Origin: Mycolicibacterium sp.
GTDB lineage: Bacteria > Actinomycetota > Actinomycetes > Mycobacteriales > Mycobacteriaceae
Assembly (NCBI RefSeq): GCF_016462945.1
Contig: NZ_JAEMSG010000002.1
Span: 9,491-73,490, forward strand
Reading direction: 5' to 3'
DNA length: 64,000 nt
Part shown: positions 32,502-36,798 of the stretch, piece after piece
Layout of the letters: each line of letters opens with the position of its first letter
How positions within the stretch are numbered: position 1 is the first letter of the stretch
The notes under the pieces: generated by a model
What the model saw: only the letters and a program-made list of their open reading frames with translations
The model's database searches: none
What the model was told of the DNA's origin: nothing
Translations under genes and position numbers: made by a program

Positions 32502-32985
32502 CCGCACCGATCTCGACGCAGTGGCGCGCCAGCTCGGCCGCGAGCCGCGCGGCCTGCTGGAGATCTCCTACCGATGCCCCAACGGTGACCCGGGCGTGGT
32601 CAAGACGGCACCCCGGTTGTCCGACGGCACCCCGTTCCCGACGCTGTACTACCTGACCCATCCGGTTTTGACCGCCGCGGCGAGCCGACTGGAGTCCGAG
32701 GGCGTGATGCGGACAATGACCGCTGTGCTGCGTGAGGATCCAGCCCTGACCGAGGCCTACCGCCGGGCTCACGAGTCGTACCTTGCCGAGCGGGACGCCA
32801 TCGAGCCGCTCGGTACGACCTTCTCCGGTGGCGGCATGCCCGACCGGGTGAAGTGTCTGCACGTGGTGATCGCGCACGCACTGGCCAAGGGCCGCGGGGT
32901 CAACCCGTTCGGCGATCAGGCACTGGCCATGCTGGCCGACGAGCCGGCGATGACCGGCATCCTGGTACGAGAGGAGTGGGTGTGA
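32494..32985 (+). CDS. DUF501 family protein (Rv1025)
   Basis: RQLGREPRG, GTPFPTLYYLTHP, GGGMPDRVKCLH. Confidence 0.9.
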   Translation: MVDRTDLDAVARQLGREPRGLLEISYRCPNGDPGVVKTAPRLSDGTPFPTLYYLTHPVLTAAASRLESEGVMRTMTAVLREDPALTEAYRRAHESYLAERDAIEPLGTTFSGGGMPDRVKCLHVVIAHALAKGRGVNPFGDQALAMLADEPAMTGILVREEWV

Positions 32986-33941
32986 GTTCGGAGTCCGACA
33001 CCGTGGCTGCGATTGACTGCGGCACCAACTCGATTCGGCTGCTGATCGCGGAGCGGGTTGACGGCCGGCTGCGGGATCTGCATCGTGAGATGCGGATCGT
33101 CCGACTCGGCGAGGGAGTCGACGCCACCGGACGATTCGCCGCCGAAGCCTTGGCGCGCACCGAGGCCGCGCTGGCGGATTACGCGGTGCTGCTGCGCAAC
33201 CACGGCGTGGGTAAGCTGCGGATGGTCGCGACCTCGGCCACCCGGGATGCGGCGAACCGCGATGATTTTTTCGCGATGACTGCCACCATCCTGGGCGCGG
33301 TTGTCCCGGGTGCGATCGCAGAGGTTATCACCGGGTCGCAGGAAGCGGAGTTGTCTTTCAACGGCGCTGTCGGCGAATTAGATTCTGCCGCTGCACCGTT
33401 CGTTGTTGTCGACCTCGGCGGCGGATCCACGGAAGTGGTGCTGGGTGACGGTGGTGGCGTGCAGGCCAGCTATTCGGCTGATATCGGCTGCGTACGGATG
33501 ACCGAGCGGTGTCTGCATTCCGATCCGCCGACCGCAACCGAGGTGGCCGCGGCCCGAGCGGTGGTGCGCGAACGTCTGGCGGAAGCACTGCGGGTTGTTC
33601 CAGTGGAACAGGCCAAGACCTGGGTCGGGGTGGCCGGAACGTTTACCACGATTGCGGCACTGGCCCAAGGCATGGATACCTACGATGCCGAGGCCATTCA
33701 CCTATCCCGGATCCGGTTCAGCGACATGCTGGCGGTGTGCGACCAGTTGATCGGCATGACCCGTGCAGACCGTGCCGCGCTGGGGCCGATGCACGAGGGC
33801 CGAGTGGATGTGATCGGTGGCGGGGCCATCGTCGTCCAGGAACTAGCGGCCGCACTGGGCGAACGCGCAGGCATCGACGAACTCGTCGTCAGCGAGCACG
33901 ACATTCTCGACGGGATCGCGCTGTCGATTCCGTCGAGATAA
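32982..33941 (+). CDS. ppx2: Exopolyphosphatase Ppx/GppA family (Rv1026)
   Basis: AIDCGTNSIRL, VATSATRDA, EAELSF, DLGGGSTE, EHDILDG. Confidence 0.92.
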   Translation: MSSESDTVAAIDCGTNSIRLLIAERVDGRLRDLHREMRIVRLGEGVDATGRFAAEALARTEAALADYAVLLRNHGVGKLRMVATSATRDAANRDDFFAMTATILGAVVPGAIAEVITGSQEAELSFNGAVGELDSAAAPFVVVDLGGGSTEVVLGDGGGVQASYSADIGCVRMTERCLHSDPPTATEVAAARAVVRERLAEALRVVPVEQAKTWVGVAGTFTTIAALAQGMDTYDAEAIHLSRIRFSDMLAVCDQLIGMTRADRAALGPMHEGRVDVIGGGAIVVQELAAALGERAGIDELVVSEHDILDGIALSIPSR

Positions 33942-33953
33942 TTGAGTGAATGC

Positions 33954-34064
33954 TTAGAGCTTGACCTTGCAGCCGCTGCCGATATTGCGGCAGTGCGTGC
34001 CGCCCTTACAGACGTTGCAGCGGCAGGTGCAGCCGCCGACGCGCTTGGTCTCAGGAATACCCAT
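33954..34064 (-). CDS. 36-aa Cys-rich microprotein MGIPETKRVGGCTCRCNVCKGGTHCRNIGSGCKVKL
   Basis: Hand-translated (below the ORF-track cutoff); AAGGAG SD at 34080-34075, ATG 34064, TAA 33956-33954, upstream TATGGT -10 at 34113-34108. Confidence 0.7.
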   Translation of the reverse strand: MGIPETKRVGGCTCRCNVCKGGTHCRNIGSGCKVKL

Positions 34065-34265
34065 CACAGATCATCTCCTTCGGCGACCCGCTGGTGGGTC
34101 AGCTTTCACCATAGTTGTCGTCACCTGCCCCTGTCAGGCAACACCGCACACCGGACCCACGCGACTCGTTGCCCGGTCGGGGGGTGAATCTTCGTAACCA
34201 GTGATTGTCCGGCAGGTGGTTTCCAGATGCCGGGCAGGTACGGTTTCTTCTGCCTAGTTCGGCGC

Positions 34266-34342
34266 GCCCCCATAGCCCAATTGGCAGAGGCAGCGGACTT
34301 AAAATCCGCACAGTGTCGGTTCGAGTCCGACTGGGGGCACCA
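34266..34342 (+). tRNA. tRNA-Leu(TAA) with short variable loop
   Basis: GCCCCCA/TGGGGGC acceptor stem, GCGGA-CTTAAAA-TCCGC anticodon arm, GTCGG-TTCGAGT-CCGAC T arm, CCA end. Confidence 0.93.
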
Positions 34343-34393
34343 GAGGCCGCATGAACGGCGGTGCTGACTTCCGCGCTAGGCCCTACAAGCCCG

Positions 34394-36526
34394 TCAGCCG
34401 AGGTAGGAGATGGTCGGGAAGGTGTAGCTCAGGGCGCCACCGGCGAAGTACGTCTGCGTCAGTGGGAGCGGATCAGTCTGCGGCATGACCACACGAGTGG
34501 TGGCACCGGGGACGTACGGATTGAGTGTTCGCATCCGTAAGACATTCGACCAAAGGTAGTTGTCGATATTGACGTACTGCTGTTCGATCGGTGTCTTCTT
34601 GGAGTAATTGAGGTACTTGGCGAACACCGCCAGTACGTCGTCGGGCGTGCTGCCGGCCTGGATGAATTGGTTCACGTAGTCATTAAATGCCGCTTCGGAC
34701 ATGGTGTAGAGGTTGCCGGCTTCGTCGGCGGTTGACGAGGGAAGGTAGTAGTTGACGGCGGCGACGCCGGCCTGCGCTTGCTTCAGCCCGTCTTGTGGTG
34801 TTGGCACGTAGCCGATATCCACCGCGGCCATCTGGGCGTAGGGATTGATCAGAACGACACCTGACCATCGGTGATGTCCGTCGACGATGTAGGTGCCGTT
34901 GTCGGCGGTGAGGGCAGGTGTGGAGAACTGGATCAGCCCGCCCTGGAAGTAGGTTTTCACTTCGGCAGGGTCCTGCAGTAGATCTTTCAGCGACTTGGTG
35001 ACGTCGATCTGGTTCTGGGTTGGAATCATGGTGGCCACGTTCGCGTTGATCGCGGTGAGAACGAGGCTGCTGTTAGGAAGGCCACGATCGGCTGCGCCCT
35101 GAGTCAGCAATTGGAACAGTGCCTGATCGCACTGAGCATTACTGGGGGTGCATTGATTCGTGTCACTGATCGGCGTCCCGTCAAGGCTCAACAGCGTGCC
35201 GAACTGAGCGTAGAAGCTGGACGGATTGGCGGCTTCACCGTAGGGCGACAGCAGCAGGGTCTGCAGCTTCGCTGCAGCAGCCGTATCGGGCAGGGTCACT
35301 TGGCCGGCCTCAATATTCTCGACGTTGGGTGACGCGGCCAGCAGGCTGGTGGCGATTCCGGCGAGGCCGCCGTAGAGGAACCAGTTGTCGACATAGCCGG
35401 CGACTTGGGCGGAGTCGGGGGTCTGGCCGAGCACGCTGAAGATCTCGTTGACCTCCACGGTGCGGAACGTGTCACTGGTGACGAAATCGCGCGCTAGGAA
35501 ACCGGTGGGCAGACCGGCCTGCAGTTGCTGCACGTAGATGGCCGCGGTTGTCGGGTCGGCAGCCTGGCCGACCAGCGTGCGGTAGAGCAGGTTCACGTAG
35601 CTATTCGCCGTGGGCTTCGGGCCGAACTGGCCGCCACCGGAGGCGCTGGCTGCGTAAAACTCAGGGGTCTTGGCGATTGATGCGGCAAACAGCGGCGCCG
35701 TGGTACCCCACATGAGTTGACTTGCGCCCCAACTGATCTCGTCCTGAGTAGCGGGGCGACTGAGCAACCCAAGGTAGTAGTTGGCGACCTCCTGCTGACG
35801 GAACTGGCTTGAGCTGTAGAGCCCGGCCACAACGCCGTTCACACCGGTCAGTCCCAACACGCCCAGATAGTTCTGCAGCTGGTCAGTGGTCGGGTTCTCC
35901 CGCAACACCTCGTTGAACAGCCCGGTGACCACCGCGGTCGAGTTGGTCACCTGTGCGGGTCCGGTCCCGCTGAACACGTCCTCGAGCGTCAAACGCAGTA
36001 GCAACGGGATGGCGTTCAAGGCTGGGGCGGCCGTTGCAGGCGCGCCGGGCAGCCCGAAGAATGCGGCGACATTACCGAGTGGATCCGTCGACACCGCGAC
36101 AGCTGCCGCACTCCGCGGCCCGAAGCCTGTCGCACCGGCCGGACCGGCCGCAGCGGGACGGGCGGCAGCCGGGGCTCCGGAGCGCCGACCGGCCGCTGAC
36201 GCGCGGGGGATGGCGGCGGACTTCGGTGTGTGAGAGGTCGGGATGCTGGAAGTGGTGGCGGATCCGGCAGGTGTAGCTCCGCGCGAGGCGGACCGGGCTG
36301 AGCGCGCCGCCGCCGGTCGGCTCGCCCCATCCGTGGCGGTCGAACGATGCGAATTGGTCGTGGAATCTGAGATCGTAGAGGATCTGCCCTCATCGGCGAC
36401 CGCAACGGGGGCTGCGACTAATGCCATGCCCAACCCGGCTGCCACGGCACCCACCTGCAGCCAGCGGAACACCGGCAACGGCCGGTGCTGACCGAGACGA
36501 TGACGCGCTCGAGCCGGACCGGCCAC
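34394..36526 (-). CDS. Secreted protein: signal peptide, Ala/Ser/Pro linker, DUF4214-like repeats, C-terminal ParB/Srx-like domain
   Basis: GAGGAG RBS 7 nt before GTG 36526; WLQVGAVAAGLGMALVAAPVAVA signal; about four Y..LL.R/Q.P/A repeats ending S.EF/TF; PTQ...IVDGHHRW motif. Confidence 0.65.
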   Translation of the reverse strand: MAGPARARHRLGQHRPLPVFRWLQVGAVAAGLGMALVAAPVAVADEGRSSTISDSTTNSHRSTATDGASRPAAARSARSASRGATPAGSATTSSIPTSHTPKSAAIPRASAAGRRSGAPAAARPAAAGPAGATGFGPRSAAAVAVSTDPLGNVAAFFGLPGAPATAAPALNAIPLLLRLTLEDVFSGTGPAQVTNSTAVVTGLFNEVLRENPTTDQLQNYLGVLGLTGVNGVVAGLYSSSQFRQQEVANYYLGLLSRPATQDEISWGASQLMWGTTAPLFAASIAKTPEFYAASASGGGQFGPKPTANSYVNLLYRTLVGQAADPTTAAIYVQQLQAGLPTGFLARDFVTSDTFRTVEVNEIFSVLGQTPDSAQVAGYVDNWFLYGGLAGIATSLLAASPNVENIEAGQVTLPDTAAAAKLQTLLLSPYGEAANPSSFYAQFGTLLSLDGTPISDTNQCTPSNAQCDQALFQLLTQGAADRGLPNSSLVLTAINANVATMIPTQNQIDVTKSLKDLLQDPAEVKTYFQGGLIQFSTPALTADNGTYIVDGHHRWSGVVLINPYAQMAAVDIGYVPTPQDGLKQAQAGVAAVNYYLPSSTADEAGNLYTMSEAAFNDYVNQFIQAGSTPDDVLAVFAKYLNYSKKTPIEQQYVNIDNYLWSNVLRMRTLNPYVPGATTRVVMPQTDPLPLTQTYFAGGALSYTFPTISYLG

Positions 36527-36798
36527 TGCGAACTCCTCATTGTTTAGCCCAGCCACGACGGGAACGACCACGAACGATATAGACACAACGGAACTACGGA
36601 AAGACCTTCACCGCTAACACCTCATGAAATCCCAAGTCGGGCTCGAGCGCCGTTGCCGCGGGAACTTACCGGCCCGCGACACCGATCCTTTCGTGAGCCG
36701 TCCCAGACCCAAGTTTCGTGAGTGATGGTGGATGCGTCGGTGGTTGGGGCGTCCGCCGATCGGGGGACAGGGTGCAATGCCGCGTCTAGCCTGCACAC

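Follow-up and report, generated by a model that had tools for sequence, protein, structure and literature searches.

Comparative sequence analysis indicates that a 36-codon frame on the minus strand of the window (the whole 64,000-nucleotide stretch of Mycolicibacterium sp. DNA that was analysed) is a real gene and not a chance ORF, with purifying selection acting on its amino acids. The microprotein family that it represents appears restricted to mycobacteria among the genomes sampled and, by every search described below, belongs to no described family. The best explanation for the product, and one that we hold to be probable, is a 36-residue basic cytosolic microprotein whose metal binding we infer from its invariant residues. 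A Zn or Cu metal thiolate would be the most likely cofactor, with an Fe-S cluster as a serious rival.

The original prediction had proposed a 36-aa minus-strand ORF with the pattern CxCxCxxC-x4-HC-x6-C, and both the reading of the strand and the ORF list place it where it was described. Its ATG occupies 34064-34062 (-) and its TAA stop 33956-33954, leaving a coding part without stop at 33957-34064 (-) and a 36-aa product. The ORF listing and a strand reading of 33700-34400 also give a longer open frame at 33954-34067 (-), corresponding to 37 aa from an in-frame GTG one codon ahead of the ATG. Since homologues keep the ATG and do not keep the GTG, the 36-aa form is the likely product. The window peptide follows the pattern C-x-C-x-C-x2-C-x4-H-C-x6-C, within a core that can be written GC-x-C-x-C-N-x-C-x4-H-C-x-N-x4-C. 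It is basic (pI 9.4, with seven K+R against one D+E), as is the family as a whole (median pI 9.0), and basic residues are conserved at both ends of the peptide. Composition analysis of the window peptide found no signal peptide or TM segment, and because no hydrophobic run exceeds six residues, the product is predicted to be cytosolic.

A six-frame search of 60 relatives returned clear matches within the genus, with E values down to 1e-14, and none outside it. Each extracted homologue frame begins with ATG and carries AGGAG or GGAG 7-10 nt ahead, an arrangement shared by almost all of the 95 homologous loci. When 16 diverse members are aligned, eight columns are invariant (six Cys, one His and one Asn, listed in Table 1), and the same eight are invariant across 71 distinct peptides, among which G11 and G31 are also conserved; the variable part of the peptide is its N-terminal 9 residues, and the Cys core is conserved. 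The Nei-Gojobori method, applied to 57 distinct 36-codon genes, gives the proposed frame a dN/dS of 0.30; the codon-complementary reverse frame has 0.44, and the remaining four frames have 0.9-1.3. In the clade that lacks the neighbouring DUF4383 gene described below, dN/dS is 0.25, and 0.21 over core residues 10-36. At the invariant positions, synonymous codons replace one another (TGC/TGT, CAC/CAT and AAC/AAT), which argues that selection acts on the amino acids. The original prediction had proposed to check for homologues with a preserved frame, the Cys/His pattern intact and a dN/dS of less than 1, and this is what the relatives display.

The distribution of the family was estimated in several ways. 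Scanned with a pattern built on the 7 closest sequences, a set with one genome for each GTDB species yielded 143 species-level loci; of the 80 that are listed by name, a group skewed to close relatives, two are MAGs recorded as Bifidobacterium breve and the rest are labelled as mycobacteria or environmental actinobacteria. Among the loci listed, the family occurs in environmental and freshwater species. Within the genus, the family profile has a match in 152 of the 401 genomes sampled, or about 38% of the sampled species; elsewhere in the order it has none in 228 genomes drawn from 70 genera. A search of 1.84 billion representative proteins matched 23 clusters at 50% identity, 22 of which carry the full Cys/His/Asn motif. 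One protein from that search (P0015, 106 aa) has two tandem copies of the Cys motif in the form C-x-C-x-C-x2-C-x4-H-C-x-D, with Asp replacing the invariant Asn.

The family is mostly single-copy, chromosomal and located at a housekeeping locus; some genomes carry two copies. Four divergent members, L012 (G036), L014 (G025), L015 (G001) and L146 (G407), are 33-47% identical, have longer N-termini and lie at other loci, where their neighbours include a polyketide-cyclase/SRPBCC protein or a SAM methyltransferase. In the 1.5-kb flanks of these four loci, blastp and tblastn found no homologue of ppx2 or DUF4383, and the neighbours scanned in L012, L014 and L015 gave no Pfam match.

The sequences around the gene suggest that it is independently expressed: promoter, leader hairpin and strong ribosome-binding site are all predicted to be retained (Table 1). 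These elements agree with the original prediction, which had proposed an AAGGAG 10 nt upstream, a TATGGT -10 box as part of the gene's own promoter, a GACCC/GGGTC 5' hairpin and a divergent tRNA-Leu. A consensus scan of 33600-34400 found exactly one promoter-like site, CTGACA-18-TATGGT at 34137-34108 (-), where shuffled sequences would be expected to give 0.2. Both hexamers have counterparts in relatives: most family members share the -10 block AACTAT(C/G/T)GT upstream, and CTGACA(C/T)A lies about 18 nt ahead of it in many homologous loci. In the clade of the window's type the leader measures about 40-48 nt, and the predicted -10 in the window ends 43 nt upstream of the ATG.

Table 1. Predicted features of the microprotein locus and its two flanking genes, in window coordinates
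Feature	Position	Strand	Remarks
ppx2-type exopolyphosphatase (Ppx-GppA)	32853..33941	+	convergent; Pfam PF02541, E 6.6e-76
3' stem-loop CTCGACGG-N16-CCGTCGAG	33906..33937	-	within the convergent ppx2 3' end; candidate terminator, no U tail
Microprotein CDS	33954..34064	-	36 codons plus TAA; invariant C12 C14 C16 C19 H24 C25 N27 C32
Shine-Dalgarno AAGGAG	34075..34080	-	10 nt ahead of the ATG
5' leader stem-loop	34083..34103	-	GACCC-N6-GGGTC plus 2 outer pairs; ends 2 nt before the Shine-Dalgarno
-10 hexamer TATGGT	34108..34113	-	18-nt spacer; within the conserved AACTATGGTG / AACTATCGTG block
-35 hexamer CTGACA	34132..34137	-	part of the sole sigma-70-like site in 33600-34400
tRNA-Leu(UAA)	34266..34342	+	divergent from the microprotein promoter

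The inverted repeat GACCC/GGGTC lies at 34100-34085, and the extended stem folds with -10.3 kcal/mol; considered by itself, the hairpin of the window is no better than shuffles (z -0.35). It is supported by its conserved position in relatives and not by its own folding energy. Leaders were folded one by one and compared with shuffles, the MAFFT alignment having placed the hairpins out of register, and on that alignment RNAalifold gave no consensus structure. All 37 leaders of the window-type clade form a GC-rich hairpin of 4-9 bp that ends within 5 nt of the Shine-Dalgarno block; the mean z relative to shuffles is -1.28, with z below -1 in 23 of the 37. The stem sequences themselves vary (GACCC/GGGTC, GCCCGCG/CGTGGGC, GGTCCGC/GTGGACC and GTCCGAC/GTCGGAC). 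Because sequence and spacing are variable and the palindrome does not match the RicR operator, we read the hairpin as an RNA element, probably a 5' stabiliser of the mRNA rather than a regulator. An Rfam scan matched only the tRNA.

Other subfamilies (L008, L009, L011, L013, L016, L075, L103, L107-L109, L154 and L155) have a longer leader of about 75-93 nt, which opens directly 3' of the -10 with the box (G/T)CATATGTTGAT(A) and then has a covarying stem-loop with CTCTGCTCC...GGTCAGAG on its flanks. The CATATGTTGAT box is absent from the window. It was considered as the operator of a regulon and rejected as such, since in each genome it occurs essentially at this locus only, which makes it a locus-specific leader element.

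At the other end of the gene, the stem-loop listed in Table 1 folds with -21.4 kcal/mol (z -3.18), a value equalled in one of 200 shuffles. No canonical terminator was found in the region scanned (33600-34400), and this structure may terminate both convergent transcripts. In the window, the ppx2 and microprotein stop codons are 12 nt apart.

The genomic address of the gene is nearly constant. When the ORFs lying up to 4 kb from each of 95 family members were all clustered, the only recurrent neighbours were ppx2, DUF501, genes of the eno operon and DUF4383, and the genes upstream were unrelated. Downstream, 82 of the 95 loci have ppx2, a Ppx-GppA gene in convergent orientation, and after it DUF501 and the eno operon. 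On the microprotein's strand, 47 of the 95 loci have a gene for a DUF4383 protein (PF14325; the M. psychrotolerans copy matches with E 6e-37) between the microprotein gene and ppx2, usually after a gap of 35-160 nt; the copy at L083:5149-5664 (+) is an example, and 46 other related loci are arranged likewise. The DUF4383 gene is sometimes a tandem duplicate, and in six loci it is set off by an insertion of about 2-2.5 kb. The DUF4383 protein has conserved His residues in its TM helices and no Cys.

The linkage extends to members about 50% identical to the window peptide. In four relatives the sole full-length DUF4383 copies sit on the same strand downstream of the microprotein gene, directly downstream in two and at about 2.6 kb in the other two. 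The linkage is one-sided, since DUF4383 genes often lack the microprotein: DUF4383 itself was found in 80 of 201 sampled Actinomycetes genomes. Of 30 DUF4383 loci fetched, only one had a Cys-rich upstream ORF, which was already known from the microprotein search; the remaining 29, roughly two dozen of them from other genera and four of them further copies within the genus, had none.

A divergent upstream tRNA-Leu(UAA) was found in 30 of the 89 loci with enough upstream DNA. It characterises the window-type clade, made up of small genomes that are mostly MAGs from freshwater lakes and from which DUF4383 has usually gone, and three loci (L036, L048 and L056) carry both tRNA-Leu and DUF4383, linking the two arrangements. 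Since the DUF4383 arrangement is seen with divergent members and in these three tRNA-Leu-keeping loci, it is probably the older one. No DUF4383 gene was found in the window's genome (97.9% complete) by the same search that detects it in relatives. By this comparison the reduced genome of the window appears to have lost DUF4383 while it keeps the microprotein under selection, as estimated for its clade. With 3.17 Mb in 224 contigs, that genome (G000) is strongly reduced for a mycobacterium. The nearest relatives with names are MAGs from freshwater lakes, and at about 3.1-3.3 Mb they reach some half of the size usual among sampled members of the genus. Just past the tRNA-Leu, a 730-aa ORF at 34394-36586 (-) has a weak DUF4214 match (E 1e-5).

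Neither the window peptide nor any of the 71 members gave a significant match in Pfam or NCBIfam, the best metallothionein score in these scans being that of one member against yeast metallothionein (E 0.031). A profile search of all PDB sequences returned a single, non-significant match (E 4.6) to 19 residues of the Cys-rich N-terminus of an FNR-type regulator. The AF2 model, built with the 71-sequence alignment, has a mean pLDDT of 68 (73-78 in the Cys core), a pTM of 0.33 and no regular secondary structure; such a model, of modest confidence, is compatible with a fold that requires metal and is not evidence for one. Foldseek found no PDB match for the 36-residue model. Literature searches returned no paper on the family, only work on polycysteine leaderless uORFs and small-ORF surveys of M. 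tuberculosis. The gene had been described as unannotated, which holds for family databases; several public assemblies, on the other hand, do call homologues, mostly as 'hypothetical protein', with stray records named 'EGF-like domain-containing protein', 'calcium-binding protein' or 'diguanylate cyclase'.

The proposed mechanism starts from an independently transcribed gene whose product would be a basic microprotein of 36 residues in the cytosol. In that reducing compartment, the six invariant Cys and the invariant His within 21 residues, surrounded by the invariant Asn and conserved Gly, argue for metal ligation over disulfides. The core of the peptide would fold around metal, the six invariant Cys and the one invariant His serving as seven ligands. 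Seven is the number needed by two tetrahedral sites that share one bridging thiolate, which favours a Zn(II)- or Cu(I)-thiolate module, that is, a miniature metallothionein-like or zinc-cluster-like unit. In other species DUF4383 may be a functional link (a partner, chaperone or sensor), and in the window's genome the microprotein would act autonomously. Searches of Pfam, NCBIfam, PDB and Foldseek found no significant similarity to metallothionein, zinc-finger or other metalloprotein models. Between 33954 and 34260 there is no RicR box within 2 mismatches and no recognisable metal-regulator operator.

The Cys spacing would fit Fe-S ligation equally well, and the strongest alternative is the same peptide with a different cofactor. 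A [4Fe-4S] or [2Fe-2S] cluster, held by three or four Cys with or without the His, would make it a module that responds to redox state, O2 or NO and that may signal to DUF4383 or mature it. The spacing C12-x3-C16-x2-C19-x5-C25 is that of the FNR N-terminal cluster region, the sole PDB sequence match mentioned above. The C-x2-C-x5-C motif occurs in 70 of 71 members, and Fe-S-type motifs in general in 70-71 of 71. C-x2-C-x5-C is the cluster motif of actinobacterial Wbl proteins, and C-x3-C-x2-C is found at radical-SAM sites; the weak NCBIfam matches of the family are mostly to radical-SAM enzymes. In 34 of the 71 members a C-D-G-G-H sequence resembles the CDGSH 2Fe-2S motif. A further point in favour comes from M. 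avium, where a DUF4383 gene (MAV_3060), which may or may not be the microprotein-linked copy, shows a DosR-independent induction of about 32-fold under hypoxia (PMC11876180).

Against an Fe-S cluster, every one of these sequence matches is non-significant, the CDGGH sequence is not conserved in the window's own clade (which has K-G-G-T-H), and six Cys in 21 residues of a 36-residue peptide are more typical of thiolate metal clusters. We regard Fe-S ligation as possible and serious, yet clearly less likely than a thiolate-bound metal. A broader proposal would make the microprotein the soluble metal- or Fe-S-bearing subunit of a hitherto unrecognised two-part system with the widespread DUF4383 membrane protein, delivering, sensing or buffering a metal or redox signal at the membrane. 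Such a system would be a genus-specific mycobacterial invention that has become autonomous in streamlined freshwater lineages; taken as a whole, we consider this extension improbable.

Another reading is a basic peptide, stabilised by zinc, whose partner would be the ribosome, RNA polymerase or nucleic acid, in the manner of the small Cys-containing ribosomal proteins L36/L33 or of CCHC zinc knuckles. The high pI and conserved basic ends would suit such a role, as would the strong predicted promoter and Shine-Dalgarno and the adjoining housekeeping genes, and C-x2-C-x4-H, the first half of a CCHC knuckle, is present in 70 of 71 members. The second half, H-x4-C, is nevertheless absent, the next Cys following the His directly (x0) or after 6-7 residues, and there is no match to ribosomal-protein, zinc-finger or Pfam zf-CCHC models. 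Presence in only about 38% of the species sampled would also be odd for a component of the core machinery. As nothing beyond charge speaks positively for it, we judge a role in ribosome or nucleic-acid binding very doubtful.

It is also conceivable that the peptide is functionless and that the ORF is a cysteine- or metal-responsive uORF tuning a downstream DUF4383 gene. The position of DUF4383 in about half of the loci, on the same strand and at short distance, would agree with this, and Cys-rich regulatory uORFs are documented in mycobacteria, where polycysteine attenuators are leaderless, depend on consecutive Cys codons and are coupled to the operon that follows (PMC4633059; 10.1101/834739). 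In the window, however, no same-strand gene follows: ppx2 is convergent and 12 nt away, and the genome lacks DUF4383, yet the clade has a dN/dS of 0.25. Conservation also goes beyond Cys content, extending to His24, Asn27, several Gly and the exact Cys spacing, and the gene has a leader and a strong Shine-Dalgarno. Because the peptide is under selection where there is no downstream gene to regulate, a cis-acting uORF is highly unlikely there.

Equally slim are the prospects of a precursor of a RiPP, a bacteriocin or an EGF-like disulfide-rich exported peptide. The product is small and Cys-rich, 45 of the 71 members, the window peptide included, meet C-x-C-x5-G-x2-C, the PROSITE PS00022 EGF_1 pattern, which probably explains the public name 'EGF-like domain-containing protein', and very weak NCBIfam matches link one member each to Cys-rich RiPP models (E 0.26-0.77); but with no conserved maturase, protease or exporter gene near the microprotein in the 95 loci, no signal peptide, and conservation in the Cys core instead of a leader, so that there is no leader/core split, such a precursor is hardly to be expected. 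The mostly single-copy, chromosomal state of the gene at a housekeeping locus also speaks against it. The original prediction had already remarked that no radical SAM enzyme or other maturase lies nearby, and neither the recurrent neighbour clusters nor the Pfam-scanned ORFs contain one.

These observations bear on a class of proteins, those of fewer than 50 residues, that is systematically missed and of which very few bacterial representatives have a known function. The family described here has a clear signature: eight residues never vary, dN/dS is close to 0.25, the genomic address is fixed, and over a third of the mycobacterial species sampled carry the gene. Its retention in 3-Mb streamlined genomes that shed its usual neighbour argues for a real cellular role. 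The linkage provides a first functional handle on DUF4383, an uncharacterised membrane-protein family. New in this study are the near-constant convergence to ppx2, the operon link to DUF4383, the loss of this partner in the window's lineage, the genus-wide frequency of the family and the Fe-S alternative. If the microprotein does bind metal, it would be the second metallothionein-like type in mycobacteria after MymT and the first in environmental species.

MymT is the Cu(I)-binding metallothionein of Mycobacterium tuberculosis and part of the RicR regulon; to our knowledge it is the only characterised precedent of its kind in the genus, and functionally the nearest one. It resembles the microprotein in being a tiny cytosolic protein of mycobacteria, rich in Cys and His, with a short gene that stands alone. 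The two have no detectable sequence relationship and their Cys patterns differ, in line with the earlier impression that the peptide does not resemble MymT, and no RicR box lies near the gene. The RicR operator is TACCC-N4-GGGTA, whereas the microprotein gene has a GACCC-N6-GGGTC palindrome that is variable among homologues; moreover, RicR-regulated genes including mymT, apart from ricR itself, are reported only in pathogenic mycobacteria (PMC3944814), whereas the present family is found in environmental and freshwater species. Fungal Gal4-type binuclear Zn2Cys6 clusters and the bacterial metallothioneins SmtA and BmtA provide another parallel, with six closely spaced Cys (joined by His in SmtA), a C-x-C-x-C style of motif and bridging thiolates that hold two or more metals. 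The microprotein differs from them in its spacing, has no Pfam match, and lacks a DNA-binding or larger domain context.

With FNR, the C-x3-C-x2-C-x5-C spacing of the window peptide is identical, and with Wbl proteins almost every member shares C-x2-C-x5-C; beyond these motifs there is no homology, as no Pfam Whib or FNR domain is matched. FNR and Wbl proteins are DNA- or sigma-binding regulators of 80-250 residues, whereas the microprotein has 36 residues, with two additional invariant Cys and one invariant His. Polycysteine attenuators, the closest formal parallel, are likewise short, conserved Cys-rich mycobacterial ORFs and often the first cistron, as the microprotein gene is where it precedes DUF4383. 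They are, however, leaderless, and the microprotein gene has a predicted leader of about 43 nt with a conserved AAGGAG; only Cys codons matter in them, whereas the microprotein also conserves H24, N27 and G11/G31 with a dN/dS of 0.2-0.3; and they need a same-strand regulated gene, whereas the microprotein of the window persists without one. Among EGF domain models, hEGF is matched by a single member (E 0.25), and an export signal is lacking. As far as these comparisons indicate, the microprotein shares only short motifs with MymT, the polycysteine attenuators and the EGF, CCHC-knuckle, Wbl/FNR and RiPP families, and is a member of none of them.
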